From NCBI RefSeq assembly GCF_013122565.1, contig NZ_CP053258.1: a stretch of 64,000 nucleotides of DNA. One strand, 5' to 3'. This DNA comes from Escherichia coli (lineage in GTDB: Bacteria > Pseudomonadota > Gammaproteobacteria > Enterobacterales > Enterobacteriaceae). This document shows, piece by piece, positions 1-58,537 of the stretch. Within the stretch, counting starts at the first letter, position 1; the number at the start of each line of letters is the position of its first letter. The translations under genes were made by a program, and so were the position numbers. The notes beneath the pieces are model-generated. The model worked only from the letters and a program-made list of their open reading frames with translations. It had not been told where the DNA came from and ran no database searches.

Positions 1-713
1 CGCTCTCCTGTTCAGCCGATCGCAATATCAAAGCAAAAATTAACAAGCACGGTATCTGGCTGGAAAAACTCGAACACAATCCGGGGCAATATATTCCAGC
101 CTCACTATGGGAAGAAAATCACGCGCAACATGTACAACTGGATCTAAACCGTCCGTTGCGTGACGTGATGCAGGATCTCGCCAGATTACCGGTAGGTACC
201 CGCGTGTCGTTAAGTGGTCCCATCGTAGTGGCGCGCGATATCGCCCACGCCAAAATAAAAGCGCGGCTGGATAGCGGCGAATCGATGCCGGAGTACCTGA
301 AGCATCATATTGTCTATTACGCTGGCCCGGCGAAAACACCGGAGAACATGGCCTGCGGTTCACTAGGTCCAACCACGGGCGGTCGAATGGACGGTTATGT
401 CGATACCTTCCAGGCTGCTGGCGGCAGTCTGGTGATGTTATCGAAAGGTAACCGCAGCCAGCAGGTCACCGATGCCTGTCACAAACATGGTGGCTTCAAT
501 CTGGGAAGTATTGGCGGTGCAGCTGCGTTACTGGCGCAAGAATATGTCAAAAGTCTGCGTTGCCTGGAATACCCGGAGCTGGGTATGGAAGCGGTGTGGA
601 TGATGGAAGTGGAAAATCTGCCCGCATTCATCCTGGTAGATGATAAAGGCAATAATTTCTTTAGTCAGTTTGAGCAGCAACACCGCTGCGCCAGTTGCCC
701 TGCGGGACATTAA
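1..713 (+). CDS. Class I (Fe-S) fumarate hydratase, FumA/FumB-family paralog; 3' portion only, 5' end lies outside the window
   Basis: Frame 3 is open from position 3 to the stop at 711-713. The translation ([31 protein letters not shown] ... [12 protein letters not shown] ... ELGMEAVW ... [12 protein letters not shown]) matches the hinge and C-terminal domain of FumA/FumB as I recall them. The ORF track shows only the TTG-initiated tail 156..713. Confidence 0.8.
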
Positions 714-722
714 GGAAAATGA

Positions 723-1325
723 ATGGAAGCGCGAATTTCAACTGAACGGCATGTGCAGCGCCAGCAGAAATTGAAGGAACAGGTCGATACGCGCGTCGCG
801 GCGGCGATAGAGAAAAAAGGGATCTTGATTGTTTTCACCGGCAATGGCAAAGGGAAATCCACTGCCGCGTTTGGTACGGTGACGCGCGCGGTGGGTCATG
901 GCAAAACGGTGGGGGTTGCGCAGTACATCAAGGGGCAATGGGACAACGGCGAATACAACCTTCTCCAGCCGCTCGGGGTTGAGTTTCATATTATGGGAAC
1001 CGGTTTTACCTGGGAGACACAGAACCGGCAAGCGGATATCGACGCGGCGAAAGAGGTCTGGTCGGAAAGCAAACGGATGCTGGCTGACAAGCGTTACGAC
1101 TTAGTGGTGCTTGATGAGCTGACCTATATGCTGGCTTACCATTATCTGGATACCGAAGAAGTGATCGCTTCTCTGCAAAACCGCCCGGCACAACAAAGTG
1201 TCATTGTCACCGGACGCGGTTGCCACAGTCAGATATTAAAAATGGCGGATACGGTCAGCGAAATCCGCCCCGTCAAACATGCTTTTGATAACGGCATTCA
1301 GGCCCAGCCGGGTATCGACTGGTAA
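723..1325 (+). CDS. Cob(I)yrinic acid a,c-diamide / cob(I)alamin adenosyltransferase family protein (BtuR/CobO-like paralog)
   Basis: 200 aa with P-loop GNGKGKSTAAFG and strong similarity to E. coli BtuR as recalled (VFTGNGKGK, GFTWETQNR, VVLDELTYM, TGRGC, VSE-RPVKHAFD). AAGGA Shine-Dalgarno sits 6 nt upstream of the ATG and 9 bp after the fumarase stop. Confidence 0.8.
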   Translation: MEARISTERHVQRQQKLKEQVDTRVAAAIEKKGILIVFTGNGKGKSTAAFGTVTRAVGHGKTVGVAQYIKGQWDNGEYNLLQPLGVEFHIMGTGFTWETQNRQADIDAAKEVWSESKRMLADKRYDLVVLDELTYMLAYHYLDTEEVIASLQNRPAQQSVIVTGRGCHSQILKMADTVSEIRPVKHAFDNGIQAQPGIDW

Positions 1326-1328
1326 TAA

Positions 1329-1360
1329 CTGCGCCTGGCATCCCGCCAGGCGCAGGTTTT
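1329..1360. terminator. Bidirectional intrinsic terminator between the convergent CobO-like and LysR genes
   Basis: Perfect 11-bp inverted repeat CTGCGCCTGGC-atccc-GCCAGGCGCAG followed by GTTTT on the + strand and flanked by an A/T run for the opposite strand. Confidence 0.5.
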
Positions 1361-2264
1361 ACATCTCCTGCGGTACGACCGATTTCGCCAGCAACCATTC
1401 ACGAAATTGCTGCAAGTGCGGCGAGTCAGACTTCTCTTCCTGCCACGTCATAATAAAACGATTACCGGTACGAATAGGCACATCACAGGGAATCACCATA
1501 TCGCCACTATCCAAATCATGTTGAATAGCGAACCGTGGTAACAGCGCCACGCCGAGATTAGAGCGCACGGCGGCAATCAACATTGAAAGCAAATCGAAAC
1601 GTGGCCCGTTGTTGACCAGCGGACTGCTAACGCCAGATAAAGCAAACCACTCTTCCCAGCCAGTAATACGGGTGCTTTGATGCAGAAGTGGTAACTCAGT
1701 AAGCAGTTCTGCCACTGACAGTTTTTGATCGGACATTGCAAGCAAACTGCCGCTGCATACCGGCAAAATCTCCTCTTCAAAGAGATATTCTACTTCCGCC
1801 CAGGGCGCGCAAAAATTTTCGCGCATAATGACAGCATCGTACTCCCGATTAAGAAAATCGCCGTTATTAGCTAAAGAATGAATATTAACAATAATATCGG
1901 GATGTAACTTTGTGAATTCATGTAAATTTGGGATTAACCAGTGGGTACTAAAAGTAGGATTAACGGCAAGTTCAATAACCTGAACCGTAGGCTGCCAGGT
2001 CATAATGGTATTGGTATCGCGTTCCAGCTTATTTAATGTTTCTTTTACTATCCCCAGGTAATACTTCCCTGCATCATTAAGAAAAATACGTTTTTTAGAG
2101 TGTGAAAATAACGGAGTACGTAAAAATTCCTCCAGCGCACTTACTTGTCTGAATACTGCACTTTGGGTTAACGCTAACTCCTCTGCCGCTCTGGTATAAC
2201 TTTCATGACGTGCGACGACCTCAAAAGTCACCAGCAGTTCCGTTTTAGGTATTTTTCCTCGCAT
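1359..2264 (-). CDS. LysR-family transcriptional regulator
   Basis: N-terminal HTH region (LVTFEVVARHESYTRAAEELALTQSAVFRQVSALEEFL) and LysR-type substrate-binding C-terminus. Start chosen at MRGKIPKTELL (2264) rather than the longer track ORF starting at 2294. Confidence 0.8.
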   Translation of the reverse strand: MRGKIPKTELLVTFEVVARHESYTRAAEELALTQSAVFRQVSALEEFLRTPLFSHSKKRIFLNDAGKYYLGIVKETLNKLERDTNTIMTWQPTVQVIELAVNPTFSTHWLIPNLHEFTKLHPDIIVNIHSLANNGDFLNREYDAVIMRENFCAPWAEVEYLFEEEILPVCSGSLLAMSDQKLSVAELLTELPLLHQSTRITGWEEWFALSGVSSPLVNNGPRFDLLSMLIAAVRSNLGVALLPRFAIQHDLDSGDMVIPCDVPIRTGNRFIMTWQEEKSDSPHLQQFREWLLAKSVVPQEM

Positions 2265-2854
2265 AATGCCTTCCGTGAAAAAATAACAATTCAAAAAATT
2301 ATTTTATAAAAAACAGTAGCGCTAATGAATATCATAATTCAAATAAACAAACCAGTCAGCTATATGTCTAACCAGGAAAATAAAGTGACAATAATCCTAA
2401 AACAGGAATTTCACCTCAGTTATCCGCATGCAATGCTTTAAAGCCATTATTGCAAGAATATTATTCATATACATGAATATACTCTAAATAAGTCGAGTTG
2501 GAGGAAGGGAACAAATAATGAATTTCCAGAAGCTTACATAAGTAAGTGACCTGGGTGAGCGAACATCGATGCAGCACATGCAACTTGAATTATGACAAGT
2601 ATACAATGATAAATTTAGATACCCTATGTTATATATTATCTATGTCCGGTTAAATTGAATGAGTCATGGCCTTCAAAGACATCGCAAAAGATAATTTCTC
2701 TTTAACAATAAGCCAGATTTACCACTTGTAAAAATTGCTATCGCCACATACACTACGCGCGTTTTCTTTCCCTTTTGCTGGCTGCTGACCGGAAAGACAA
2801 AATTACCCTCGCAATACAGGGGGTTGTTTAACGTCTATATTTCAGGACAGCGTT

Positions 2855-4252
2855 ATGCATCATCTTTCAAGGCTTGATAAAGCCTTTCTGCGCAAAGGGA
2901 TCCAACTTTCCCGCGCCAACAATATTGTTTCATTATCTCGTCCATCAGGTGTCAGTGCCCGCGTACTGCTGCCAGACGAACTGCCGCTGGAAGAAAAAGC
3001 AGTAACACAACTGCTTGATTTTGCAGAAGTGAAGCTACCAGACCACCCAGGTTATGTACGCCAGACGTGTGCGACGCCAGATTTTCATCCCGGCAATGGC
3101 GTCCCCGTTGGCGCGGTGGTAGCCTCAACGCCGGATTTAGTCATTCCCGCCGCCATCGGCACCGATATTTCTTGTGGCATGCGGCTGCTGACGACCGGAA
3201 TAACACTTGAGCAAGCCGAAGCGCATAAAGACGTCATCACTCAGCGGTTAACGCAAGTGTTACTGCAAAATGAGCGCGATGTTCCGTTATCTGCACGAGC
3301 GTTCACCGCGCTTTTTGATGGCGGGCCGGCAGATTGCATGTCGGCCTTGCCATCAGCAGGTCTCTGGACACGCACGAATATCCCCCGAATGGTACAAGAG
3401 ATTGACCGCTGCATTGGGCTGAACGAGCATAAAAGTCATTCGCGTTATGCCCCACCCGCCCTGCTGGCAACGGACCGCGCATTACTCCGCGACCCTTGTC
3501 TGGGTACGCCGGGTTCAGGTAATCATTTTATTGAACTTCAGGTAGTTGATAGCGTGATCGATCGCCATGTAGCCTGGCAACAAGGGCTGAAAACAGGCGA
3601 TATCGTGGTGATGATCCATAGTGGATCGCGAGATGTCGGCTTTTACGTCGGACGACGCTGGACGGACCGTGCCCGCGCAGACTGGCCCGCTGGGCATAAA
3701 CATCCACAAAGCGGGTTATATGGTCTGGCTGGTGGACTGGCGGAGGAATATCTACAAGCGATGGGAATGGCGGCGCGTTACGCATGGTTAAATCGCGTGA
3801 CCATTACGGAAATGGTGCGCGTATGTTTTGCCGATTTATTCCATCAGGATGAATCACATCTGGTGGTGGATGTGCCGCATAACATCATCCTTCGCGAGCA
3901 TGAGATGAATATTCATCGCAAAGGCGCAACACCGGCACGTGCGGGCGATCTGGCGTTAATCCCCGGTTCAATGGGCGATTATTCGTGGCTTGCGGTAGGT
4001 TGCGGCAACCCGGAGTGGTTGTGGTCATGCAGTCACGGAGCAGGACGCAGCCAGCGTCGGCAGGCCATGCGCGCACACGCGACTGAAGAGTCAACGCTGC
4101 CGTGGCAATGCGTAACACTGCGTGAAGAACGGCGTATTGAGGAAGCGCCAGCTGCTTATAAAGATATTGGTCCGGTTATCGAAGCCCAACAAGAAGCTGG
4201 ATTAATTCAGCCAGCGGTCAGATTTCGACCGTGGTTAACGTTTAAGGCATAA
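2855..4252 (+). CDS. RtcB-family RNA ligase paralog (orphan)
   Basis: 465 aa with the RtcB signature motifs DISCGMR, GSGNHFIE, HSGSR, HN...HRKGA, IPGSMG and SHGAGR. Stop codon is immediately followed by the sucD 3' terminator palindrome. Confidence 0.8.
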   Translation: MHHLSRLDKAFLRKGIQLSRANNIVSLSRPSGVSARVLLPDELPLEEKAVTQLLDFAEVKLPDHPGYVRQTCATPDFHPGNGVPVGAVVASTPDLVIPAAIGTDISCGMRLLTTGITLEQAEAHKDVITQRLTQVLLQNERDVPLSARAFTALFDGGPADCMSALPSAGLWTRTNIPRMVQEIDRCIGLNEHKSHSRYAPPALLATDRALLRDPCLGTPGSGNHFIELQVVDSVIDRHVAWQQGLKTGDIVVMIHSGSRDVGFYVGRRWTDRARADWPAGHKHPQSGLYGLAGGLAEEYLQAMGMAARYAWLNRVTITEMVRVCFADLFHQDESHLVVDVPHNIILREHEMNIHRKGATPARAGDLALIPGSMGDYSWLAVGCGNPEWLWSCSHGAGRSQRRQAMRAHATEESTLPWQCVTLREERRIEEAPAAYKDIGPVIEAQQEAGLIQPAVRFRPWLTFKA

Positions 4253-4349
4253 AAAAGGCCATCATACGATGGCCAACCATGTCGAAACCGACAGCCCTTC
4301 GCCATTCCTGTAGAGGGAAGCGGCGAGGGCTATTTCTTATTACAGATAT
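4253..4349 (-). ncRNA. sdhX: sucD 3'UTR-derived sRNA (SdhX/RybD-like) with intrinsic terminator
   Basis: Minus-strand region directly after the sucD stop ends in hairpin GGCCATCGTATGATGGCC followed by TTTTTT (4253-4276 on +). Position and terminator match the SdhX sRNA as I recall it; exact 5' end not determinable. Confidence 0.5.
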
Positions 4350-5219
4350 TTATTTCAGAACAGTTTTCAGTGCTTCACCGATATCCGCCAGGCTGCGAAC
4401 GGTTTTCACGCCTGCGGCTTCCAGAGCCGCGAATTTCTCATCCGCAGTCCCTTTCCCACCGGCAATGATGGCACCTGCGTGGCCCATACGTTTGCCTTTC
4501 GGCGCAGTCACACCAGCGATGTAACCTACAACTGGCTTGGTAACGTGCTCTTTGATGTACGCTGCTGCTTCTTCTTCAGCGCTACCGCCGATCTCACCGA
4601 TCATCACGATCGCTTCGGTCTGCGGATCTTTTTCGAACATTTCGAGGATGTCGATAAAGTTAGAGCCAGGGATCGGGTCACCGCCGATACCAACACAGGT
4701 CGACTGACCGAAACCGTAATCCGTGGTCTGTTTAACCGCTTCATAGGTCAGTGTACCGGAACGGGAAACGATACCCACTTTACCCGGTTTGTGAATGTGA
4801 CCAGGCTGGATACCGATTTTGCATTCACCTGGGGTGATAACGCCCGGGCAGTTCGGGCCGATCATACGAACGCCGGCTTCATCCAGTTTCACTTTCACAG
4901 TCAGCATATCCAGCGTCGGGATGCCTTCAGTGATGGTGATAATCAGTTTGATGCCTGCGTCGATGGCTTCCAGAATGGAGTCTTTGCAGAACGGTGCTGG
5001 TACGTAGATAACAGAAGCGGTAGCGCCAGTGGCAGCAACGGCTTCACGCACGGTGTTGAACACCGGCAGGCCGAGGTGGGTGGTGCCGCCTTTACCTGGG
5101 GTTACGCCGCCAACCATTTTAGTGCCGTATGCAATAGCCTGTTCTGAGTGGAAAGTCCCCTGGCTACCGGTAAAACCCTGGCAGATAACCTTGGTGTTTT
5201 TATCAATTAAAATGGACAT
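4350..5219 (-). CDS. sucD: Succinyl-CoA synthetase alpha subunit
   Basis: 289 aa, [27 protein letters not shown]..., CoA-binding and phosphohistidine motifs; start overlaps the sucC stop. Confidence 0.97.
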
Positions 5220-6385
5220 TATTTCCCCTCCACTGCGGCAACAACCTGCTGAGCTGCATCCGTCAGACCTTTTGCTGCAATAATATTCAGGCCGCTGTCA
5301 GCCAGTTTCTTCGCGCCGAGTTCGGCGTTGTTACCTTCCAGACGTACCACGACCGGTACGTTAACACCCACTTCCGCTACCGCGCCGATGATACCGTCAG
5401 CGATCAGGTCGCAACGAACGATACCGCCGAAGATGTTAACCAGAACGGCTTTCACTTTGTCGTCAGAGAGGATGATTTTGAACGCTTCGGTTACACGTTC
5501 TTTGGTTGCGCCGCCGCCAACGTCCAGGAAGTTAGCCGGTTCGCCGCCGTGCAGTTTAACGATGTCCATCGTACCCATCGCCAGACCTGCGCCGTTAACC
5601 ATACAACCGATGTTACCGTCCAGCGCAACGTAGTTCAGTTCCCACTGTGCAGCTTGTGCTTCACGTGGATCTTCCTGCGACTGGTCACGCATTTCGCGCA
5701 GATCAGGCTGGCGGAACAGTGCGTTGCCATCAGCGCCCAGTTTGCCGTCGAGGCAAATCAGATCGCCCTGTTTGGTAATGACCAGCGGGTTGATTTCGAT
5801 CAGCGCCAGGTCACGCTCCAGGAAAATGGTCGCCAGGCCCATGAAGATTTTGGTGAACTGCTGAACCAGTTTACCTTCCAGACCAAGTTTGAACGCCAGC
5901 TCGCGTCCCTGATACGGCATCGGGCCAGTCAGCGGATCAAGCGCAACTTTATGGATCAGGTGCGGAGTTTCTTCCGCCACTTTTTCGATTTCCACGCCGC
6001 CTTCGGTGGAGGCCATAAAGACCACGCGACGTGAACTACGGTCTACAACGGCACCGAGATACAGCTCTTTAGCGATATCGGTCGCCGCTTCAACCAGAAT
6101 CTGGTTAACCGGTTGGCCATTGGCATCTGTTTGATACGTTACCAGACGCTTGCCCAGCCAGTTTTCTGCAAAAGCACGGATGTCTTCTTTGCTGTTTACA
6201 ACTTTCACACCGCCCGCTTTACCGCGGCCACCAGCGTGAACCTGACATTTCACTACCCACGGACCGGCACCGATTTTTGAAGCGGCTTCTTCTGCTTCGC
6301 GCGGAGTAGTACAGGCATAACCCACCGGTGCTGGTAAGCCATAGCGGGCAAAAAGTTGTTTTGCCTGATATTCATGTAAGTTCAT
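5219..6385 (-). CDS. sucC: Succinyl-CoA synthetase beta subunit
   Basis: 388 aa, [18 protein letters not shown]..., ATP-grasp domain. Confidence 0.97.
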
Positions 6386-6469: not shown

Positions 6470-6640
6470 CGTAGGCCTGATAAGACGCGTCAGCGTCGCA
6501 TCAGGCATCGCTTGTCGGATGCGGCGCGAGCGCCTTATCCGACCTACATCGGTGCTTCCCGTAGGCCTGATAAGACGCGTTAAGCGTCGCATCAGGCTTC
6601 AATGGCCGGAGAAGGCGATAATGCCTTATCCGGTCTACAG
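6470..6640. repeat. BIME / cluster of REP palindromes in the sucB-sucC intergenic region
   Basis: Several alternating-orientation REP units (GCCTGATGCGACGCT...CTTATCAGGCCTAC type, and GCCGGATGCGGCG...CTTATCCGACCTAC). Confidence 0.85.
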
Positions 6641-7892: not shown

Positions 7893-10694
7893 TTATTCGA
7901 CGTTCAGCGCGTCATTAACCAGATCTTGTTGCTGTTTCTGGTGAACGGACATATACCCTACCGCCGGAGAGGCGGAGGCCGGGCGGCCTGCATAACGCAG
8001 AGAAGCCCCAAACGGAATCACTTCACGGAAATGATGCTGGCTGCAGTACCATGCGCCCTGGTTGAGCGGCTCTTCCTGGCACCAGACAAAATCCTTGACG
8101 TGAGCAAACTGCTGCAACACTTCCTGCATCGCTTTATGCGGGAACGGGTAGAGTTGCTCGATACGCACAATGGCGACATCGTGTTGATTGTTCTTACGAC
8201 GCTGTTCCAGCAGGTCGTAATAAACCTTACCAGAACACATCACTACGCGCTTCACGCCCTTCGGATCAAGCTCGTCGATTTCACCGATGGCTGGCAGGAA
8301 GGTGCCGTTCGCCAGTTCTTCGAGGCTGGAAACCGCCAGCGGATGACGCAGCAGGGATTTCGGCGACATCACGACCAGCGGACGACGCATCCCGCGCAGC
8401 GCCTGACGACGCAGCATGTGGTAAACCTGTGCCGGGGTAGACGGTACGCACACCTGCATGTTTTGCTCAGCGCAAAGTTGCAGATAACGTTCCAGACGCG
8501 CGGAGGAGTGCTCCGGCCCCTGCCCTTCGTAACCGTGTGGCAGCAACATCACCAGGCCACACATCCGGCCCCATTTCTGTTCGCCAGAGGAGATGAACTG
8601 GTCGATAACCACCTGAGCACCGTTAGCGAAGTCACCGAACTGCGCTTCCCAGATGGTCAGAGTGCGTGGTTCTGCGGTGGCATAACCGTATTCAAACGCC
8701 AGCACGGCTTCTTCAGACAGTACGGAGTCCCAGACACGGAACGCGCCCTGGCCGTTATGGATGTGTTGCAGCGGCGTGTAAGTGGAACCGTTAGACTGGT
8801 TGTGGATCACCGCGTGGCGGTGGAAGAAGGTACCGCGACCGGAGTCTTCACCCGACAGGCGAACCGGAATGCCTTCGTCAACCAGCGTGGCGTAAGCGAG
8901 GTTTTCCGCGCCGCCCCAGTCGAACAGTTTCTCACCGGCTGCCATCGCCTGGCGATCGCCATAAATCTTGGCAACGCGAGACTGCATTTCAACTGCTTCC
9001 GGCACCGTGCTGATGCGTTTAGCCAGTTCCTGCAGGCGCTTCATCTCAACTTTGTTCGGGTACTCTTCGTCCCATTCGTGGTTGAGGTACGGCGACCAGG
9101 TGAAGGAGTGCATGTTCATCGGACGCCACTCTGCTACCACGCAATCGCCAGCATCCAGCGCATCGCGGTACAGGTTAACCATCTCGGTGGCATCTTCCAG
9201 CGTCGCGACTTTTTCCTGCTCCAGCTTGTCTGCGTAGATTTTGCGCGGCGTTGGATGTTTTTTGATTTTCTGATACATCAGCGGCTGGGTTGCGCTCGGC
9301 TCGTCGGCTTCGTTGTGGCCGTGACGGCGGTAGCACACCAGGTCGATGAAGACATCACGTTTAAAGGTGTTACGGAAATCGAGCGCCAGACGGGTCACAA
9401 AGGCAACGGCTTCCGGATCATCCGCGTTAACGTGGAAAATCGGTGCCTGAACCATCTTACCGATATCAGTACAGTACGGCGTCGAACGTGCATCCAGCGG
9501 ATTAGAGGTGGTGAAGCCAACCTGGTTGTTGATAACGATACGTACCGTACCGCCAACTTCATAACCACGCGCTTTCGACATGTTCAGGGTTTCCTGAACC
9601 ACGCCCTGCCCGGTCACTGCGGCGTCACCGTGGATGGTGATTGGCAGCACTTTGTTGCTGCTCGGCTCATCGAGTCTGTCCAGACGGGCACGAACAGAAC
9701 CGATAACGACCGGGCTGACAATCTCAAGGTGAGACGGGTTAAACGCCAGCGCCAGGTGCACCAGGCCGCCATCGGTCTGGAAGTCAGACGAGAAGCCCAT
9801 GTGGTATTTCACGTCGCCTGTGCCGAGGTGTTCTTTATGTTTACCGGCAAACTCGTCGAACAAGTCTTGCGGTTTTTTACCCAGCACGTTCACCAGCACG
9901 TTCAGACGACCACGGTGCGCCATCCCGAGAACCACTTCGCGGGTGCCGCTGTTGCCCGCGTGGCGGATCATCTCTTTAAGCATCGGGATTAACGCGTCAC
10001 CGCCTTCCAGCGAGAAGCGTTTTGCGCCAGGGAATTTTGCGCCGAGGTAACGTTCAAGGCCTTCAGCGGCGGTCAGTTCGCTTAAGAAGCGTTTTTTCTC
10101 TTCGCTATTGAAAGTCGCGCGACCAGACTCGATACGCTGTTGGATCCAGCGTTTTTCTTCGGTGCTGGTAATGTGCATATACTCGGCGCCAATCGGGCCG
10201 CAGTAGGTTTGCTTCAGGGCTTCCAGCAGTTCACCGAGTTTCATGGTTTCTTTGCCGCTGGCAAATGAACCGACGTTGAAGGTCTCCTGGAAGTCTGCTT
10301 CGGTCAGATCGTGGAAAGACGGATCCAGATCGGCCACTTTATCTTGCTGCCACAGTCCCAGCGGATCGAGATTCGCATGCTGGTGACCACGGAAGCGGTA
10401 TGCGTTAATGAGCTGCAGGACTTTAACCTGCTTCACATTGGTGTCAGGGTCGGAGATCGTTGAAGAGTAACGTGAAGCGTCTTTCGCCAGGCGGCGGAAA
10501 TATTCACGCGTTTGAGAGTGGAATTGATCCGGTTTGACTCCCGTACCAGGTAACTGCTGGAACGTCGAACGCCAGTTAGCGTCAACCGAGTCAGGATCGG
10601 TTAAGAAGTCTTCATAGAGCTGTTCTATCCAGCTCTGGTTTGCGCCAGAGAGGTAAGAAGAGTCCAACCAGGCTTTCAAAGCGCTGTTCTGCAT
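7893..10694 (-). CDS. sucA: 2-oxoglutarate dehydrogenase E1 component
   Basis: 933 aa, [34 protein letters not shown]...; thiamine-diphosphate enzyme. Confidence 0.97.
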
Positions 10695-10873
10695 CGTGAT
10701 CCCTTAAGCATCTTTTTTATGCTTACTTCGCCGTGGATACTACCACGCACAGTGATGTGCGTGCCGGGGTTCACTTGCGAGCTCTTGTCTACGTAGTGGC
10801 TCGCGAAGGAACCTTTAAAAACTGTCTTAGTGTCAGGGGCAGTTTTTAAAGATTTCCTGCATTTCTTTGTTAC

Positions 10874-10992
10874 GCCTGATGCGCTGCGCTTATCAGGCCT
10901 ACGGGTAATGACGTGTAGGCCGGATAAGGCGTTCACGCCGCATCCGGCACTGGTTGCCTGATAAGACGCTTGAGCGTCTTATCAGGCCTACG
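10874..10992. repeat. REP cluster in the sdhB-sucA intergenic region
   Basis: Three REP units including two copies of CTTATCAGGCCTAC (10892-10902 and 10981-10991 contain ATCAGGCCTAC). Confidence 0.85.
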
Positions 10993-10994
10993 GT

Positions 10995-11711
10995 TTACGC
11001 ATTACGTTGCAACAACATCGACTTGATATGACCGATGGCGCGCGTCGGGTTCAGCCCCTTCGGACATACACTGACGCAGTTCATGATGCTGTGACAGCGG
11101 AATACACTGAATGCATCGCTCAAACCGTCGAGGCGGCTGTCAGTCTCGGTATCACGGCTATCGATCAGGAAACGATATGCCGCTAACAAGCCTGCCGGGC
11201 CGATAAACTTATCGGGATTCCACCAGAAAGACGGACAAGAGGTTGAACAACATGCGCAGAGAATACATTCATACAGCCCGTCGAGTTTTTCGCGCTGCTC
11301 TGGCATCTGTAAATGCTCGCGAGCTGGCGGATTTTGTTCATTATTCAACAGGTAAGGCTTAATTTTCTCATATTGCGCATAGAATTGTCCCATGTCTACC
11401 ACCAAATCGCGGATCACCGGTAAACCTGGCAGAGGGCGAATCACAATCTTCTTGCCCGGCTGGTTGAGTGCCGAAATTGGGGTAATACAGGCCAGACCAT
11501 TCTTGCCGTTCATGTTCAGACCGTCGGAACCGCACACACCTTCACGACAGGAGCGACGGAACGACAGGCTGGGATCTTTCTCTTTCAGCTGGATAAGCGC
11601 ATCCAGCAGCATCATGTCACGACCTTCTTCCGCTTCCAGGGTGTAATCCTGCATACGCGGAGCATCATCAACATCCGGGTTATAGCGATAAATTGAAAAC
11701 TCGAGTCTCAT
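10995..11711 (-). CDS. sdhB: Succinate dehydrogenase iron-sulfur subunit
   Basis: 238 aa, Cys clusters for the 2Fe-2S, 4Fe-4S and 3Fe-4S centres. Confidence 0.97.
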   Translation of the reverse strand: MRLEFSIYRYNPDVDDAPRMQDYTLEAEEGRDMMLLDALIQLKEKDPSLSFRRSCREGVCGSDGLNMNGKNGLACITPISALNQPGKKIVIRPLPGLPVIRDLVVDMGQFYAQYEKIKPYLLNNEQNPPAREHLQMPEQREKLDGLYECILCACCSTSCPSFWWNPDKFIGPAGLLAAYRFLIDSRDTETDSRLDGLSDAFSVFRCHSIMNCVSVCPKGLNPTRAIGHIKSMLLQRNA

Positions 11712-11726
11712 TTTCCTGTCTCCGCA

Positions 11727-13493
11727 TTAGTAAGTACGAATCTTCGGCGGGAATGCCGGACGCAGTTTCGGTTCCATGTTGACGCTTCGGCGCGTCATGG
11801 ATTCCGACTCTGGCAGATACAGGGAGTGGCACAGCCAGTTTTCATCATCACGATCCGGGAAGTCGAAGCGGCTATGCGCGCCACGGCTTTCGGTACGGAA
11901 GTTGGCAGAAACAGCCGTTGCATACGCCGTTTCCATCAGGTTATCCAGTTCCAGGCACTCAACGCGCTGGGTGTTGAACTCGCTGGAAGTGTCATCCAGA
12001 CGGGCATTTTTCAGACGCTCGCGGATAACTTTCAACTGCTCAAGCCCTTTCGCCATCGCATCACCTTCACGGAAGACCGAGAAGTTATGCTGCATACATT
12101 CTTGCAGCGCTTTACGAATCGCCACCGGATCTTCACCGTTACGATTATTGTTCCAGCGGTTCAGACGATCCAGAGATGCTTCAACATCAGACTCGCTGGC
12201 ATCGCGCAATGCGCCCTGCTCGGCGATAGACTCTTGCAGATGCAGACCCGCTGCGCGACCAAAGACCACCAGGTCCAGCAGCGAGTTGCCGCCCAGACGG
12301 TTAGCACCGTGTACCGATACGCAGGCAATTTCACCTACCGCGAACAGCCCCGGAACAACCACATCTTCGCCTTTCTCATTCACAGTCAGCGCCTGACCGG
12401 TAACTTTGGTCGGAATACCGCCCATCATGTAGTGACAGGTTGGGATAACCGGAATCGGCTCTTTCACCGGATCAACGTGAGCAAAGGTACGGGAAAGCTC
12501 CAGGATACCCGGCAGACGGGATTCGAGAACTTCTTTACCCAGGTGATCGAGTTTCAGTTTCGCGTGTGGCCCCCACGGACCATCACAGCCGCGACCTTCA
12601 CGGATTTCAATCATGATGGAACGCGCCACCACATCACGGCCCGCCAGGTCTTTGGCGTTCGGCGCATAACGCTCCATAAAGCGTTCGCCATGTTTGTTCA
12701 GCAGATAACCGCCTTCACCACGGCAACCTTCGGTGACCAGTACGCCCGCACCGGCAATGCCGGTCGGGTGGAATTGCCACATTTCCATATCCTGCACCGG
12801 TACGCCTGCGCGGATAGCCATGCCGACACCGTCACCGGTGTTAATGTGGGCGTTAGTGGTGGACTGATAAATACGCCCTGCCCCGCCAGTCGCCAGCACG
12901 GTAGCGCGGGCTTTGAAATAAACCACTTCACCGGTTTCGATGCACAGTGCGGTACAACCCACCACCGCGCCATCCTGGTTTTTCACCAGATCCAGCGCAT
13001 ACCACTCGGAGAAAATGGTGGTGTGGTTTTTCAGGTTCTGCTGATAAAGCGTGTGCAACAGTGCGTGACCGGTACGGTCAGCCGCTGCCGCAGTGCGTGC
13101 CGCCTGCTCGCCGCCGAAGTTTTTCGACTGACCGCCAAACGGACGTTGATAGATACGACCATCATCGAGACGCGAGAACGGCAGGCCCATGTGTTCCAGT
13201 TCCAGAATCGCTTCCGGCCCGGTTTTACACATATATTCAATCGCGTCCTGGTCACCGATATAGTCCGACCCTTTCACGGTGTCGTACATATGCCATTCCC
13301 AGTTATCTTCATGGGTATTACCCAGCGCAACGGTAATGCCGCCTTGCGCAGAAACGGTATGGGAACGGGTCGGGAAGACTTTAGAGAGCAGCGCACAGGT
13401 CTGGCCGCTCTGGGAAATTTGCAGCGCCGCGCGCATACCTGCGCCGCCGGCACCAATCACAACTGCATCAAATTCTCTGACTGGCAATTTCAT
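11727..13493 (-). CDS. sdhA: Succinate dehydrogenase flavoprotein subunit
   Basis: Start trimmed to [24 protein letters not shown] (FAD-binding GxGxxG); 588 aa. Confidence 0.97.
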
Positions 13494-13840
13494 CACACAC
13501 CCCACACCACAACGAATCCATAAATCACGTAAACCACCAGTGCAACGACAATCACCAGTTGCAGCATCAGGCGCAAAGCCAGCGGTTTAACGTAGTCGGT
13601 CAACACCTGCCACATGCCGATCCAGGCATGGATCAAGATAGAAAACAGCGCCAGCAGGGTGAACACTTTGGTGAACGCAGAGGCGAAGAAACCGATCCAG
13701 ACTTCATATGTCAGTTCGCCACTGGTGGCGAAAAAACCGACCATATAAATGATGTAGAGCGTCAGGACGATAGCGGTAGCGCGAACGAGGATGAAATCAT
13801 GTACGCCATTGCGTCCTAATGCGGAGGCGTTGCTTACCAT
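13493..13840 (-). CDS. sdhD: Succinate dehydrogenase membrane anchor subunit
   Basis: 115 aa hydrophobic protein, [21 protein letters not shown]... Confidence 0.95.
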
Positions 13841-14223
13841 ACGAGGACTCCTGCGAGAAGTGAAAGCACGACAGTAATAACAAAGGAGATTTTGGCGGAG
13901 CGTTTACCCGCTTCGAATGTTTCTTCCAGATAGCCAAAATCCATCATCATGTGGCGAATACCTACGACGACGTGATACGCCAGAGCGGTAAGGATGCCCC
14001 ACATGATAAATTTGACGAAGAAGCTGCCCATAATCGCGGAAGCTTGCTCGAAACCTTCAGGGGAAGAGAGGCTGGTACCCAGAAGCCACAGCAGGATGCC
14101 CACAGCAACAAAGGTGATCACACCGGAAACGCGATGGAGAATGGACGCTATCGCCGTGATGGGGAACCGGATGGTCTGTAGGTCCAGATTAACAGGTCTT
14201 TGTTTTTTCACATTTCTTATCAT
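13834..14223 (-). CDS. sdhC: Succinate dehydrogenase cytochrome b556 subunit
   Basis: Start trimmed to [34 protein letters not shown] (129 aa). Confidence 0.95.
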
Positions 14224-14238
14224 GAATAACGCCCACAT

Positions 14239-14931
14239 GCTGTTCTTATTATTCCCTGGGGACTACGGGCACAGAGGTTAACTTTCTGTTACCTGGAGAC
14301 GTCGGGATTTCCTTCCTCCGGTCTGCTTGCGGGTCAGACAGCGTCCTTTCTATAACTGCGCGTCATGCAAAACACTGCTTCCAGATGCGAAAACGACACG
14401 TTACAACGCTGGGTGGCTCGGGATTGCAGGGTGTTCCGGAGACCTGGCGGCAGTATAGGCCGTTCACAAAATCATTACAATTAACCTACATATAGTTTGT
14501 CGGGTTTTATCCTGAACAGTGATCCAGGTCACGATAACAACATTTATTTAATTTTTAATCATCTAATTTGACAATCATTCAACAAAGTTGTTACAAACAT
14601 TACCAGGAAAAGCATATAATGCGTAAAAGTTATGAAGTCGGTATTTCACCTAAGATTAACTTATGTAACAGTGTGGAAGTATTGACCAATTCATTCGGGA
14701 CAGTTATTAGTGGTAGACAAGTTTAATAATTCGGATTGCTAAGTACTTGATTCGCCATTTATTCGTCATCAATGGATCCTTTACCTGCAAGCGCCCAGAG
14801 CTCTGTACCCAGGTTTTCCCCTCTTTCACAGAGCGGCGAGCCAAATAACAAACGGGTAAAGCCAGGTTGATGTGCGAAGGCAAATTTAAGTTCCGGCAGT
14901 CTTACGCAATAAGGCGCTAAGGAGACCTTAA
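14239..14931. promoter_or_regulatory. Divergent gltA / sdhCDAB-sucABCD control region
   Basis: 693-bp AT-rich intergenic region between divergent sdhC and gltA. By established knowledge it holds the gltA and sdhC promoters; individual sites are not resolved here. Confidence 0.5.
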
Positions 14932-16215
14932 ATGGCTGATACAAAAGCAAAACTCACCCTCAACGGGGACACAGCTGTTGAACTGGATGTGCTGAAAGGC
15001 ACGCTGGGTCAAGATGTTATTGATATCCGTACTCTCGGTTCAAAAGGTGTGTTCACCTTTGACCCAGGCTTCACTTCAACCGCATCCTGCGAATCTAAAA
15101 TTACTTTTATTGATGGTGATGAAGGTATTTTGCTGCACCGCGGTTTCCCGATCGATCAGCTGGCGACCGATTCTAACTACCTGGAAGTTTGTTACATCCT
15201 GCTGAATGGTGAAAAACCGACTCAGGAACAGTATGACGAATTTAAAACTACGGTGACCCGTCATACCATGATCCACGAGCAGATTACCCGTCTGTTCCAC
15301 GCTTTCCGTCGCGACTCACATCCAATGGCAGTCATGTGTGGTATTACCGGCGCGCTGGCGGCGTTCTATCACGACTCGCTGGATGTTAACAATCCTCGTC
15401 ATCGTGAAATTGCCGCGTTCCGCCTGCTGTCGAAAATGCCGACCATGGCAGCGATGTGTTACAAGTATTCCATTGGTCAGCCATTTGTTTATCCGCGCAA
15501 CGATCTCTCCTACGCCGGTAACTTCCTGAATATGATGTTCTCCACGCCGTGCGAACCGTATGAAGTTAATCCGATTCTGGAACGTGCTATGGACCGTATT
15601 CTGATCCTGCACGCTGACCATGAACAGAACGCCTCTACCTCCACCGTGCGTACTGCTGGCTCTTCGGGTGCGAACCCGTTTGCCTGTATCGCAGCAGGTA
15701 TTGCTTCACTGTGGGGACCTGCGCACGGTGGTGCTAACGAAGCGGCGCTGAAAATGCTGGAAGAAATCAGCTCCGTTAAACACATTCCGGAATTTGTTCG
15801 TCGTGCGAAAGACAAAAATGATTCTTTCCGCCTGATGGGCTTCGGTCACCGCGTGTACAAAAATTACGACCCGCGCGCCACCGTAATGCGTGAAACCTGC
15901 CATGAAGTGCTGAAAGAGCTGGGCACCAAAGATGACCTGCTGGAAGTGGCTATGGAGCTGGAAAACATCGCGCTGAACGACCCGTACTTTATCGAGAAGA
16001 AACTGTACCCGAACGTCGATTTCTACTCTGGTATCATCCTGAAAGCGATGGGTATTCCTTCTTCCATGTTCACCGTCATCTTCGCCATGGCCCGTACCGT
16101 TGGCTGGATCGCTCACTGGAGCGAAATGCACAGTGACGGCATGAAGATCGCCCGTCCGCGCCAGTTGTATACAGGATATGAAAAACGCGACTTTAAAAGC
16201 GATATCAAGCGTTAA
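14932..16215 (+). CDS. gltA: Citrate synthase
   Basis: 427 aa, [78 protein letters not shown]... Confidence 0.97.
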
Positions 16216-16606
16216 TGGTTGATTGCTAAGTTGTAAATATTTTAACCCGCTGTTCATATGGCGGGTTAATTTTTATATGCCTAAATACAAATATTTGTAA
16301 AAATAAAATCCACTATCGGATATCCATATATTTTTAATAAAAATATATCGGTATGAATTATAAACAGTTCAGTGAACTTTAATCACCTATATTCCTGTCA
16401 GTCACATGAATAAATCACCAAACATAGCGCACCCCTATAATTTCCAATGGTTTATTCATTAAACAATTAATTCACGACATCAATTAATTACTTTTACATT
16501 TAATAAAATTAATAATATTTTTAAGAAAAACTAAAAACATTCGACAATCAAATAAGATATTCTTGCACCGATATACCTTTTTTCTTTTCTGTTAAAGGAC
16601 TCTGTT

Positions 16607-17173
16607 ATGTTTAAAGGACAAAAAACATTGGCCGCACTGGCCGTATCTCTGCTGTTCACTGCACCTGTTTATGCAGCTGATGAAGGATCCGGTGAAATTC
16701 ACTTTAAAGGTGAGGTTATTGAAGCGCCTTGTGAAATACATCAGGATGATATTGATAAAGAAGTTGAACTCGGTCAGGTGACCACCAGCCACATTAATCA
16801 AACTCATCACAGCGATGCCGTTGCTGTCGACCTGCGCTTGGTGAATTGCGATTTGGAAAACTCCAACAACGGTTCCGGTGACAAGATTTCTAAAGTTGCA
16901 GTCACCTTTGATAGCTCAGCGAAAACCACCGGCGCAGATCCGATTCTCAACAACACCAGCACGGGTGAAGCCACCGGCGTCGGCGTGCGTTTATTGAATA
17001 AAAATCAAACCAATATCGTTTTAGGCACCGCTGCTCCAGACATCGACCTGGCTCCGACCTCCAGCGAGCAAACGCTGAATTTCTTTGCCTGGATGGAACA
17101 AATTGATCAGGCAACACCAGTAACGCCAGGTGCAGTTACGGCGAATGCAACCTACGTGCTGGATTATAAATAA
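16607..17173 (+). CDS. ybgD: Fimbrial subunit (chaperone-usher fimbriae)
   Basis: 188 aa with signal peptide (MFKGQKTLAALAVSLLFTAPVYA) and fimbrial subunit C-terminal Y-x-L-x-Y-K-like pattern. Confidence 0.85.
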   Translation: MFKGQKTLAALAVSLLFTAPVYAADEGSGEIHFKGEVIEAPCEIHQDDIDKEVELGQVTTSHINQTHHSDAVAVDLRLVNCDLENSNNGSGDKISKVAVTFDSSAKTTGADPILNNTSTGEATGVGVRLLNKNQTNIVLGTAAPDIDLAPTSSEQTLNFFAWMEQIDQATPVTPGAVTANATYVLDYK

Positions 17174-17223
17174 GTATTACTTTGGCGGCGCTATCGCCGC
17201 CTTTCTTCAAATATTTATCAGGT

Positions 17224-19683
17224 ATGGACACCGTGAATATTTATCGACTCTCTTTTGTATCCTGCCTGGTCATGGCGATGCCTTCCGCATTAGCGGTCGA
17301 ATTCAACCTGAATGTCCTCGATAAATCGATGCGCGATCGTATTGATATATCATTATTAAAGGAAAAAGGTGTCATTGCTCCAGGCGAATATTTTGTTAGC
17401 GTTGCGGTAAATAATAACCAAATCAGTAACGGGCAAAAGATTAACTGGCAAAAAAATGACGATAAAACCATTCCGTGCATCAATGATTTACTGGTCGATA
17501 AATTTGGCTTAAAACCTGAAGTCCGTCAGTCGTTACCATTGATAAATCAGTGCATCGATTTTAGCTCCCGACCTGAAATGCTCTTCAATTTTGATCAGGC
17601 CAGTCAGCAACTGAATATCACCATTCCGCAGGCCTGGCTGGCGTGGCACTCAGATAACTGGACCCCACCCTCCACATGGAAAGAAGGTGTCGCCGGTGTC
17701 CTGATGGATTACAACTTGTTTGCTAGCAGCTACCGCCCACAGAATGGCAGCAGCAGCACTAATCTTAACGCCTACGGAACAGCAGGAATCAACACGGGGG
17801 CATGGCGCTTACGCAGTGATTACCAGTTGAATCAGACGGATAGCGATGATGACCATGAACAGTCAGGCGAAATATCACGTACCTATCTTTTTCGCCCGTT
17901 ACCGCAATTAGGTTCAAAATTAACCCTCGGCGAAACGGATTTTAGTTCCAATATTTTCGACGGTTTTTCTTATACCGGTGCGGCACTGGCGAGTGACGAT
18001 CGAATGTTGCCATGGGAACTACGCGGCTACGCTCCACAAATTAGCGGTATTGCACAGACCAATGCCACGGTGACGATCAGTCAATCAGGCCGCGTCATTT
18101 ACCAGAAAAAAGTCACACCAGGTCCGTTTATCATTGATGACCTTAATCAGTCCGTCCAGGGAACGCTGGATGTCAAAGTAACGGAAGAAGATGGTCGGGT
18201 GAACAATTTCCAGGTTTCGGCAGCATCGACGCCCTTCCTGACTCGCCAGGGACAGGTTCGCTATAAACTGGCCGCGGGTCAGCCACGGCCTTCCATGTCA
18301 CATCAAACTGAAAATGAAACCTTTTTTAGCAATGAAGTTTCCTGGGGGATGCTCTCCAACACCTCGCTGTACGGCGGCCTGCTGATTTCGGGTGATGACT
18401 ACCATTCTGCCGCAATGGGTATCGGGCAAAATATGCTGTGGCTTGGCGCGCTGTCGTTTGATGTCACCTGGGCCAGTAGCCATTTTGATACTCAGCAGGA
18501 CGAGCGGGGCTTAAGCTACCGATTTAACTACAGCAAACAAGTGGATACCACCAACAGCACGATTTCACTTGCCGCTTATCGTTTCTCCGATCGTCATTTT
18601 CACAGCTACGCCAACTATCTGGATCACAAATACAACGACAGCGATGCGCAGGACGAAAAACAGACAATCAGCTTATCCGTAGGCCAACCGATTACCCCAC
18701 TAAACCTCAATCTTTACGCCAACCTGTTGCATCAAACCTGGTGGAATGCAGACGCCTCCACGACCGCCAACATCACGGCAGGTTTTAATGTTGATATTGG
18801 TGACTGGAGAGATATCTCGATTTCGACGTCATTCAATACAACCCATTACGAAGATAAAGATCGCGATAACCAGATTTACCTGTCGATTTCGCTCCCCTTC
18901 GGTAACGGTGGCCGGGTTGGCTATGACATGCAAAACAGTAGCCACAGCACCACACACCGCATGTCGTGGAACGATACGCTGGATGAACGTAATAGCTGGG
19001 GCATGTCTGCCGGACTGCAATCCGACCGTCCGGACAGTGGAGCCCAGGTGAGCGGTAACTATCAGCACCTGAGTTCAGCGGGTGAGTGGGATATTTCTGG
19101 TACCTATGCCGCCAATGATTACAGTTCTGTAAGCAGCAGCTGGAGCGGTTCTTTCACCGCAACCCAATATGGTGCAGCGTTTCATCGCCGCAGCTCCACC
19201 AATGAACCACGCCTGATGGTCAGCACCGATGGCGTGGCAGATATTCCGGTTCAGGGCAATCTCGACTACACCAACCATTTTGGCATTGCGGTGGTGCCGT
19301 TGATTTCCAGTTACCAGCCTTCCACCGTGGCGGTGAACATGAATGACTTACCCGACGGCGTAACAGTTGCAGAAAACGTTATCAAAGAAACGTGGATTGA
19401 AGGCGCAATAGGTTACAAATCACTGGCTTCCCGTTCCGGTAAAGACGTTAACGTCATCATTCGCAACGCCAGCGGTCAGTTCCCTCCCCTCGGTGCGGAT
19501 ATCCGCCAGGATGACAGCGGCATTAGCGTGGGGATGGTTGGCGAGGAAGGACACGCCTGGTTAAGCGGAGTCGCTGAAAATCAAAAGTTTACCGTGGTCT
19601 GGGGTGATAGTCAGCGTTGCTCGATCCATCTTCCTGAACATATGGAAGACACCGCAAATCGCCTGATTTTACCTTGTCATTAA
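17224..19683 (+). CDS. ybgQ: Fimbrial outer-membrane usher
   Basis: About 820 aa, usher-family size and composition; start chosen at MDTVNIYRLSFVSCLVMAMPSALA. Confidence 0.85.
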   Translation: MDTVNIYRLSFVSCLVMAMPSALAVEFNLNVLDKSMRDRIDISLLKEKGVIAPGEYFVSVAVNNNQISNGQKINWQKNDDKTIPCINDLLVDKFGLKPEVRQSLPLINQCIDFSSRPEMLFNFDQASQQLNITIPQAWLAWHSDNWTPPSTWKEGVAGVLMDYNLFASSYRPQNGSSSTNLNAYGTAGINTGAWRLRSDYQLNQTDSDDDHEQSGEISRTYLFRPLPQLGSKLTLGETDFSSNIFDGFSYTGAALASDDRMLPWELRGYAPQISGIAQTNATVTISQSGRVIYQKKVTPGPFIIDDLNQSVQGTLDVKVTEEDGRVNNFQVSAASTPFLTRQGQVRYKLAAGQPRPSMSHQTENETFFSNEVSWGMLSNTSLYGGLLISGDDYHSAAMGIGQNMLWLGALSFDVTWASSHFDTQQDERGLSYRFNYSKQVDTTNSTISLAAYRFSDRHFHSYANYLDHKYNDSDAQDEKQTISLSVGQPITPLNLNLYANLLHQTWWNADASTTANITAGFNVDIGDWRDISISTSFNTTHYEDKDRDNQIYLSISLPFGNGGRVGYDMQNSSHSTTHRMSWNDTLDERNSWGMSAGLQSDRPDSGAQVSGNYQHLSSAGEWDISGTYAANDYSSVSSSWSGSFTATQYGAAFHRRSSTNEPRLMVSTDGVADIPVQGNLDYTNHFGIAVVPLISSYQPSTVAVNMNDLPDGVTVAENVIKETWIEGAIGYKSLASRSGKDVNVIIRNASGQFPPLGADIRQDDSGISVGMVGEEGHAWLSGVAENQKFTVVWGDSQRCSIHLPEHMEDTANRLILPCH

Positions 19684-19697
19684 TTAAGGAAATGAAA

Positions 19698-20429
19698 ATG
19701 ACATTTATGAAAGGACTTCCCCTTTTGTTGTTGGTAGCCAGTCTGTGCAGCCACGCAGCACTACAACCCGATCGTACTCGTATTGTGTTTAACGCTAATG
19801 ATAAAGCTACCAGTCTGCGAGTAGATAATCGTAGCGATAAACTCCCCTACCTCGCTTATTCCTGGCTCGAAAATGAAAAAGGGGAGAAAAGCGACGATCT
19901 TCTGGTCGCCCTGCCACCGATACAACGTCTGGAACCGAAAGCAACAACGCAGGTGCGGATAGTCAAGCAAGCCTCGACCGCGAAATTACCGGGCGATCGC
20001 GAAACGCTATTTTTCTACAATATACGTGAAATTCCTCCCGCCCCGGAAAAAAACAGCGACCATGCCGTTCTGCAGGTCGCCATCCAGAGCCGTATCAAGG
20101 TGTTCTGGCGACCGTCTGCGTTACGCAAGAAAGCAGGGGAAAAGGTCGAACTGCAGTTACAGGTCAGCCAGAATGGCAACCAACTTAGCTTAAAAAACCC
20201 GACCGGCTATTATCTGACAATCGCCTACCTGGGACGAAATGAGCAAGGCGTTCTCCCCGGCTTCAAAACCGTGATAGTTGCACCTTTTAGTACGGTCAGC
20301 ACTAATACCGGAAGCTATAGCGGCAGCCAGTTTTATCTCGGTTATATGGATGATTACGGCGCGTTACGCATGACGACGCTCAATTGTAGCGGACAATGCC
20401 GTTTACAAGCCGTGGAGGCGAAGAAATGA
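19698..20429 (+). CDS. ybgP: Fimbrial periplasmic chaperone
   Basis: About 243 aa PapD-like chaperone with signal peptide ([20 protein letters not shown]). Confidence 0.85.
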
Positions 20430-21487
20430 GTGCTGGTAAGGGATTATTGCTCATCTTTTTTCTTCTTTTTCTACCCTTGAAGTCTGCGCTGGCGCTGAAC
20501 TGCTATTTTGGTACTTCCGGCGGGGCGGTAGAAAAATCGGAAGCTATTCAACCATTTGCTGTACCAGGCAATGCCAAACCAGGCGATAAAATCTGGGAGT
20601 CTGACGATATTAAAATTCCCGTTTATTGTGACAACAATACCAACGGCAACTTTGAAAGCGAGCATGTCTACGCCTGGGTAAACCCGTATCCGGGGGTGCA
20701 GGATCCTTATTATCAACTCGGCGTGACATACAATGGTGTCGATTACGATGCCAGCCTGGGGAAAAGCCGTATCGACACTAACCAGTGTATCGACAGTAAA
20801 AACATTGATATTTATACCCCTGAGCAGATCATCGCGATGGGATGGCAGAACAAAATTTGCTCGGGCGATCCCGCTAATATTCATATGTCGCGTACCTTTC
20901 TCGCTCGCATGCGGTTATACGTCAAAATTCGCGAAATGCCACCGCATGATTATCAAAGCACGCTTAGCGATTACATCGTGGTGCAATTTGATGGCGAAGG
21001 CAGTGTTAATGAGGACCCTACCGCTCAAAACCTGAAATATCATATTACCGGTCTGGAAAACATTCGCGTGCTGGACTGCAGCGTCAATTTTGCCATTACG
21101 CCTGCCAACCAGGTGATTGATTTTGGTAAATTTAACTTGCTGGATATTCGGCGACATAACATGACTAAAACGTTCAGTATTAAAACGACCAAGAGCCAAA
21201 ACGATCAATGTACCGACGGATTTAAAGTCAGTTCCTCCTTTTATACCGAAGAAACATTGATTGAAGAAGATAAAGCATTGTTGATTGGTAATGGTCTGAA
21301 GCTACGTTTACTGGATGAAAACGCCTCGCCTTATACATTCAATAAATATGCTGAATACGCCGATTTCACCAGTGACATGTTGATCTACGAAAAAACCTAT
21401 ACAGCTGAACTTTCGTCCATTCCAGGCACCCCCATCGAGGCTGGGCCCTTCGATACAGTGGTGCTTTTTAAGATTAACTATAACTGA
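20426..21487 (+). CDS. ybgO: Fimbrial adhesin-like protein
   Basis: About 353 aa secreted protein with signal peptide; last gene of the ybgDQPO cluster. Confidence 0.8.
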
Positions 21488-21638
21488 TTTACCATCATGC
21501 CCTTTGCAGCCGAAAAGGGCATCTCATTCAGAAAATTGCTGATTTTCCCCTTTTCCTTGATTGCTGTTATTTTTTCCTGGCCCGGCTTTCTTTATGCTGT
21601 ATCGATACACCAAAGAGAAAATAATGAGGGAGCAAAGG

Positions 21639-55756: not shown

Positions 55757-55854
55757 GCCTGATGCGCTACGCTTATCAGGCCTACGCAGCTCCTGCAATA
55801 TATTGAATTTTCATGCTTTTGTAGGCCGGATAAGGCGTTCACGCCGCATCCGGC
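55757..55854. repeat. REP pair (BIME) between nagD and asnB
   Basis: GCCTGATGCGCTACGCTTATCAGGCCTAC and inverted GTAGGCCGGATAAGGCGTTCACGCCGCATCCGGC. Confidence 0.85.
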
Positions 55855-58144: not shown

Positions 58145-58221
58145 GGCTACGTAGCTCAGTTGGTTAGAGCACATCACTCATAATGATGGGGTCACAGGTT
58201 CGAATCCCGTCGTAGCCACCA
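58145..58221 (+). tRNA. metT: tRNA-Met (elongator, anticodon CAT)
   Basis: GGCTACGTAGCTCAGTTGGTTAGAGCACATCACTCATAATGATGGGGTCACAGGTTCGAATCCCGTCGTAGCCACCA; cloverleaf with encoded CCA. Confidence 0.95.
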
Positions 58222-58230
58222 TCTTTTTTT

Positions 58231-58315
58231 GCGGGAGTGGCGAAATTGGTAGACGCACCAGATTTAGGTTCTGGCGCCGCAAGGTGTGCGAGTTCAAGTC
58301 TCGCCTCCCGCACCA
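58231..58315 (+). tRNA. leuW: tRNA-Leu (anticodon TAG), long variable arm
   Basis: GCGGGAGTGGCGAAATTGGTAGACGCACCAGATTTAGGTTCTGG...CTCGCCTCCCGCACCA. Confidence 0.95.
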
Positions 58316-58338
58316 TTCACCAGAAAGCGTTGTACGGA

Positions 58339-58413
58339 TGGGGTATCGCCAAGCGGTAAGGCACCGGTTTTTGATACCGGCATTCCCTGGTTCGAATCCA
58401 GGTACCCCAGCCA
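58339..58413 (+). tRNA. glnU: tRNA-Gln (anticodon TTG)
   Basis: TGGGGTATCGCCAAGCGGTAAGGCACCGGTTTTTGATACCGGCATTCCCTGGTTCGAATCCAGGTACCCCAGCCA. Confidence 0.95.
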
Positions 58414-58522: not shown

Positions 58523-58537
58523 TCGAAGAAACAATCT

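Follow-up and report, generated by a model that had tools for sequence, protein, structure and literature searches.

The question raised by this locus is whether the short untranslated stretch between sucD and an accessory island of Escherichia coli encodes a known regulatory RNA, and whether the position of the island directly beyond that stretch says anything about the selection acting on it. The window analyzed here is a stretch of 64,000 nucleotides from contig NZ_CP053258.1. The original prediction, made from these letters, held that the 97 nucleotides past the sucD stop codon (4253-4349) form a structured 3' untranslated region (3'UTR) that ends in a strong intrinsic terminator and resembles the small RNA (sRNA) SdhX, and that its preservation up to the edge of the accessory DNA implies that the sRNA was under selection while the rearrangement took place.

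Identity and extent of the sucD 3'UTR

The sucD gene, encoding the alpha subunit of succinyl-CoA synthetase, occupies positions 4350..5219 on the minus strand in the list of open reading frames (stop codon TAA, 4352-4350), where matching E. coli records likewise annotate sucD. It is the last gene of the sdhCDAB-sucABCD operon, with sucC, sucB, and sucA lying upstream, and the operon gives the parental mRNA of SdhX. Past the stop codon, the minus strand reads AUAUCUGUAAUAAGAAAUAGCCCUCGCCGCUUCCCUCUACAGGAAUGGCGAAGGGCUGUCGGUUUCGACAUGGUUGGCCAUCGUAUGAUGGCCUUUUUU. In the numbering used here, position 1 of SdhX is the first base past the sucD stop codon, so that position p corresponds to window position 4350 - p.

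In the curated K-12 record (NC_000913.3), the ncRNA sdhX (b4764) is placed at 765050..765150, directly 3' of sucD; a PGAP-annotated K-12 record is without this feature. The annotated K-12 length of 101 nucleotides, projected on the window, reaches 4249. Alignment of the two sequences gives identity at 100 of the 101 positions and at all 99 positions up to the mapped 3' end of the RNA. The identity starts inside sucD and holds through the last U, with the first mismatch at RNA position 100, which is A here and G in K-12. Term-seq in K-12 placed a strong 3' end at 765148(+), that is, at SdhX position 99, the last U, and the table holds three entries for this end that span three growth conditions (Adams et al. 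2021, PMC7815308, supplementary file 1). As the 3' end falls at position 99 and the first mismatch only at position 100, the window and K-12 encode the same mature RNA, with 99 of 99 nucleotides identical. Full-length SdhX (also RybD) is accordingly placed at 4251..4349 on the minus strand, from the first base past the sucD stop codon to the last U. The original prediction had the start of this interval right but set its 3' limit short, since the U tract continues to 4251 and gives a length of 99 rather than 97 nucleotides. Its proposed match to SdhX in position and terminator proves stronger than was claimed: the alignment to K-12 sdhX that it called for shows identity across the whole RNA, not in the terminator alone.

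The RNA is nearly universal in the species. A query with the 101-nucleotide sdhX sequence (E = 7e-45) found it in 5425 of 5426 complete E. coli genomes, in 4225 of them at an identity of at least 99%. The core genes of the window have a best E. coli match of 98.8%. Searches of Rfam returned no SdhX match in the whole window at the gathering score, and at a permissive threshold within 4100-4500 only a match of isrD to the terminator alone (17.3 bits, where the gathering score is 37), again with no SdhX family; because Rfam 15 is without an SdhX model, the missing match speaks neither for nor against membership.

Several other features were seen in the window. Rfam naRNA4 (CssrE) matches occur twice, at 6474-6544 on the minus strand and at 10918-10988 on the plus strand, within the operon, where they fall in its sucB-sucC and sdhB-sucA spacers; we take these to be palindromic repeats of the REP/BIME type. 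A match to Rfam ES036 (CssrF) at 55778-55820 on the minus strand is barely over the gathering score, and seven tRNA genes (Met, Leu, Gln, Gln, Met, Gln, Gln) lie at 58145-58849 on the plus strand, comparable to metT-leuW-glnUW-metU-glnVX of K-12.

On sequence, then, the 3'UTR of sucD is SdhX itself in its K-12 form, not merely an SdhX-like element. That it is the known K-12-type sRNA, processed from the 3' end of the sdh-suc transcript and acting as described for K-12, is close to certain in our estimation, and its presence in this window is that of an already known, ordinary feature.

Structure and expected mode of action

A fold of the 105-nucleotide UTR has a free energy of -42.1 kcal/mol (z = -4.56 against dinucleotide shuffles), and its minimum free energy structure has three elements: a long hairpin at RNA positions 19-57, a smaller one, and the terminator. 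The long hairpin, hairpin 1, corresponds to 4293..4331 on the minus strand and has the same sequence as in K-12. The Rho-independent terminator lies at 4251..4274, also on the minus strand, with a stem formed by 4274-4268 and 4263-4257, a GUAU loop, and a run of six U residues at 4256-4251. The terminator scan reads it as GGCCATC-GTAT-GATGGCC followed by TTTTTT, with seven base pairs, five of them G-C. Fold and scan together bear out the earlier description of a structured 3'UTR with a strong intrinsic terminator at its end. This hairpin doubles as the terminator of the sdh-suc operon and would be expected to serve as the Hfq-binding 3' module of the sRNA.

Nested within the full-length RNA is a short form of 38 nucleotides (SdhX 62-99; 4251..4288, minus strand), the counterpart of Salmonella SdhX2. 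In isolation this part folds at -12.7 kcal/mol into the terminator hairpin, preceded by a free 14-nucleotide 5' tail in which the seed lies; a functional form of 38 nucleotides has been described (PMC6393394, PMC9438474). The seed, UUCGACAUGGU, with its core CGACAU, was defined by Miyakoshi et al. 2019 (PMC6393394). In the window it is found as a sequence match at position 64 (SdhX 64-74; 4276..4286, minus strand), and it is unpaired in the short-form fold. Two single bases that matter for target choice are also present. Position 34 is C (window 4316), inside hairpin 1 and within a katG-pairing region specific to E. coli, and position 62 is G (window 4288). C34 is required for repression of katG, for which a C34G change with compensatory katG mutations has been published, whereas G62, with which the short form begins, is an E. 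coli-specific base required for repression of fdoG (PMC6393394).

Positions 65-73 form nine contiguous Watson-Crick pairs with positions -2 to +7 of K-12 ackA (CCAUGUCGA), and 0 of 500 shuffled seeds equalled the energy of this duplex; the pairing was computed on the K-12 gene, as ackA, katG, and fdoG of the present genome lie outside the window. A promoter scan over 1 kb found one promoter-like site, no excess over shuffled sequence (mean 0.9). The lack of any upstream site above the chance level fits release of the RNA by processing rather than its separate transcription (PMC6393394).

In K-12, SdhX is the end of an approximately 10-kb sdh-suc mRNA from which RNase E cuts give forms of about 101 and 38 nucleotides (PMC6393394). 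The RNA is bound by Hfq and represses ackA over its start codon, with katG and fdoG as additional targets in E. coli (PMC6393394; reviewed in PMC9438474). By analogy, transcription from the operon promoters would stop at the intrinsic terminator (4274-4251), and RNase E cleavage of the long mRNA would yield species of about 100 and about 38 nucleotides with a common 3' end, whose terminator hairpin and U tail would be bound by Hfq. The single-stranded seed UUCGACAUGGU (4286-4276) would then pair across the ackA start codon and reduce synthesis of acetate kinase, an effect that would tie expression of the TCA-cycle operon to acetate metabolism. G62 and the region of C34 would bring in fdoG and katG, respectively, as E. 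coli targets. That this strain expresses the RNA, processes it, and binds it by Hfq we infer from the identical K-12 sequence.

Comparison with characterized systems places the RNA precisely. It shares with K-12 SdhX (b4764) its place after sucD, 99 of 99 nucleotides, the seed, the hairpins, the terminator, C34, and G62. It differs from K-12 in that base 100, the first past the RNA, is A rather than G, and in its convergent neighbor: K-12 has mngR, which ends 2 nucleotides past the annotated end of sdhX, and the window has an rtcB-family gene with a stop codon that overlaps the U tract. Like SdhX1 (87 nucleotides) and SdhX2 (38 nucleotides) of Salmonella, it would represent the 3' end of the same operon, released by RNase E, bound by Hfq, and directing the seed core CGACAU to ackA, properties established in Salmonella (PMC6393394) and read here from the sequence. 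The Salmonella RNA, however, is without the katG-pairing region, has U at the position of G62, and targets fumB and yfbV but not katG or fdoG (PMC6393394), so that the window carries the E. coli version. Release from an mRNA 3' end by RNase E, an intrinsic terminator as the Hfq module, and a short seed are features that SdhX would share with CpxQ, SroC, NarS, and MalH (PMC9438474; by analogy in the present case). Those sRNAs have other parental genes and other targets, and SdhX is unusual in that its conservation across genera is slight outside the seed (PMC6393394).

The convergent rtcB-family gene

Transcribed toward sucD is an open reading frame of 465 codons at 2855..4252 on the plus strand, with a Pfam RtcB match at E = 1.5e-95. 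Matching genomes annotate the product as an RtcB family protein, and the gene is the first of the accessory island. This RtcB paralogue has about 60 residues before the Pfam domain, and neither rtcA nor rtcR adjoins it. Its stop codon, TAA at 4250-4252, consists of base 4250 and of the two bases complementary to the final U residues of SdhX. Past rtcB, the part of the island in the window (1-4252) includes a LysR regulator, cobO, and a class I fumarate hydratase gene; in related genomes (one locus, 9149-22120) the island adds genes for a dicarboxylate symporter, DUF4387 and AtuA-family proteins, methylaspartate ammonia-lyase, and glutamate (methylaspartate) mutase. The island presumably encodes the methylaspartate route of glutamate fermentation, as in strains of the O157:H7 type.

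The C terminus of the protein varies with its neighborhood. It reads TFKA* where the gene abuts sdhX (window 4245-4252, with the stop codon borrowed from the U tract) and TFNG* in strain XJ5.2 (locus 6225-6240), in which mngRAB lies between the two. In a solved RtcB homologue, VVK is aligned to the TFK of the window. Canonical RtcB ends in VKG, and by this comparison the window and XJ5.2 C termini would each retain one of two canonical residues. In the mngB-rtcB spacer of XJ5.2 (locus ~6250-6290), a hairpin, TTTCAGGCCATC-TTCG-GATGGCCTGAAA, follows mngB. It has the 7-base pair core stem of the SdhX terminator (GGCCATC/GATGGCC), which may be coincidence, and it leaves the junction unexplained.

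Because the rtcB stop codon lies partly in the U tract, any complete rtcB mRNA enters sdhX in antisense, and in this arrangement convergent transcription of rtcB could interfere with SdhX. A stronger form of this idea treats the sucD-rtcB spacer as a two-way terminator, in which the complement of hairpin 1 (4293-4331) together with AUUUCUUAUU ends the rtcB mRNA, whose 3'UTR, fully antisense to SdhX, could then titrate the sRNA or set off its degradation. The plus strand does fold as a mirror image of the hairpins, the second of which, complementary to hairpin 1, is followed by a U-rich run, but such mirroring follows necessarily from the structure of SdhX itself. The terminator scan called no plus-strand terminator in the sucD-rtcB spacer. 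Likewise, K-12 Term-seq has zero minus-strand 3' ends, in the sense of mngR, between 764900 and 765199, although K-12 mngR may be poorly expressed, which limits the weight of their absence. As expression of rtcB is moreover only presumed in this reading, we consider the two-way terminator unlikely. Somewhat less probable again is the regulatory consequence, by which expression of the island could sponge or destroy SdhX through an rtcB mRNA 3'UTR that ends at the mirrored hairpin 1 and the U-rich run at about 4331-4345 and is a perfect complement of SdhX, its seed as well, coupling the island to the TCA/acetate switch. Were the antisense reading true, K-12 mngR would fall under the same argument.

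Transcription may also pass in the other direction. Published K-12 Rho termination tables list a region at 765604(+), about 450 nucleotides past the SdhX terminator and antisense to mngR. This suggests that in K-12 some transcription escapes the SdhX terminator and continues antisense to the neighboring gene, and equivalent read-through in this window would run antisense into rtcB.

Constraint on the RNA and the accessory junction

Selection on the 3'UTR was assessed in eight genomes spanning the fetched junction types, in all of which the SucD protein is identical. Within sdhX, 5 of the 99 positions are variable (pi 0.018), against 47 of 161 four-fold degenerate sites of sucD (pi 0.115), a difference significant by Fisher's test (p = 8e-7). 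The variable positions of sdhX fall in the 5' leader (4 and 5), near the top of hairpin 1 (45 and 46), and in the terminator loop (83). No variable site among the eight genomes falls in the seed, in the terminator stem, or in the U tract. With fewer variable sites than the four-fold sites of sucD and none in these three elements, purifying selection on the UTR is supported.

A single exception was encountered. In FDAARGOS_944 (NZ_CP065613.1; 6215-6998), an IS1 element lies within the SdhX seed, flanked by a 9-base pair target duplication (TCGACATGG), and splits sucD and SdhX nucleotides 1-73 from the terminator. This is the sole interrupted sdhX among 5425 complete E. coli genomes and, judged from the insertion, a probable natural sdhX knockout; as this strain carries IS1 in the seed, sdhX is not indispensable.

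The junction between core and variable DNA is placed at 4245..4250 by alignments and by the rtcB C terminus. Homology to the K-12 flank of sdhX fades between 4249 and 4245, and homology to rtcB copies located elsewhere, as in XJ5.2, starts at 4245, the XJ5.2 comparison giving a breakpoint at 4245-4248. The neighbors found at this point in other strains were surveyed in complete E. coli genomes with 140-nucleotide junction queries, each consisting of the final 50 nucleotides of sdhX and 90 nucleotides beyond, at a coverage of at least 80%. Four types were found: mngR (3884 genomes), an rtcB remnant of the O157 type (838), a TPR gene (547), and the intact rtcB end of the window type (156). They sum to 5425, that is, to all complete E. 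coli genomes carrying sdhX. In the alignment, all types agree as far as the end of the U tract and part 2-6 nucleotides later. In about 135-144 additional genomes, the rtcB end is located elsewhere, with mngRAB between rtcB and sdhX.

Individual strains illustrate the range of arrangements. In K-12, sucD is followed by sdhX, mngR, and mngA, with mngB-cydA beyond. In XJ5.2, mngRAB follows sdhX and the rtcB island comes after it. In O157:H7 strain TW14359, sdhX is followed by an rtcB 3' remnant of about 43 nucleotides, LysR, and the rest of the island; in A37 and the B2 strain "clone D i2" by the TPR gene and cydA; and in EC42405 by a broken rtcB and a hut (histidine utilization) cluster. The junction of the window is therefore an inherited minority haplotype of a hypervariable sdhX-cydA locus. 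With intact rtcB in 156 genomes and the remnant in 838, it is old as well as inherited, the O157-type derivative having the same breakpoint and the two accounting for 994 genomes in all.

These distributions bear directly on whether a recent rearrangement took place in this strain, with selection on the sRNA fixing the breakpoint exactly at the 3' end of the RNA. The breakpoint is indeed only 1-6 nucleotides from that end, and the UTR is under purifying selection. That the same junction recurs in 156 complete genomes that have rtcB intact and in 838 that have the remnant nevertheless points to an old event, and three other types of neighbor break at the same place. In K-12, moreover, only 2 nucleotides separate the annotated sdhX end from the mngR stop codon, which leaves almost no alternative breakpoint. 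Recombination in the flanking core genes can also move the junction without a new selection event. On this evidence, a recent rearrangement shaped by the sRNA is very unlikely, and the inherited haplotype is the preferred account.

Of the original claim of selection on the sRNA during the rearrangement, what stands is purifying selection on the UTR; the junction adds little as evidence for it, given the old shared haplotype and the dual role of the hairpin. Homologous recombination in the core genes on either side could swap the variable block and would take the junction with it passively. The position of the junction says little about selection since it is old and shared, since the K-12 gap is only 2 nucleotides, since the hairpin has two roles, and since passive carriage is possible. 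Nor can it show whether the sRNA or the operon terminator is what selection acts on, as the same hairpin also terminates and stabilizes the sdh-suc mRNA (PMC6393394). That the element is an operon terminator only, its conservation serving the ending and stability of the sdh-suc mRNA with no trans-acting sRNA role in this strain, is nonetheless hardly credible: although the SdhX hairpin is the operon terminator, removing the entire 3'UTR in Salmonella lowers SucD and impairs growth on acetate (PMC6393394), and the need for a terminator accounts for part of the observed constraint, the non-terminator nucleotides 1-75 are also identical to a K-12 RNA of proven regulatory activity, and the seed is invariant in the compared genomes and complementary to ackA, neither of which a terminator alone needs.

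The island junction leaves the RNA unchanged. The locus is a tidy case in which core and accessory DNA meet at a point fixed by an sRNA/terminator 3' end, and it introduces no new mechanism. SdhX is a characterized link of the TCA-cycle operon to acetate metabolism, and as the K-12 RNA is unchanged here, the import of the finding is mainly one of annotation.
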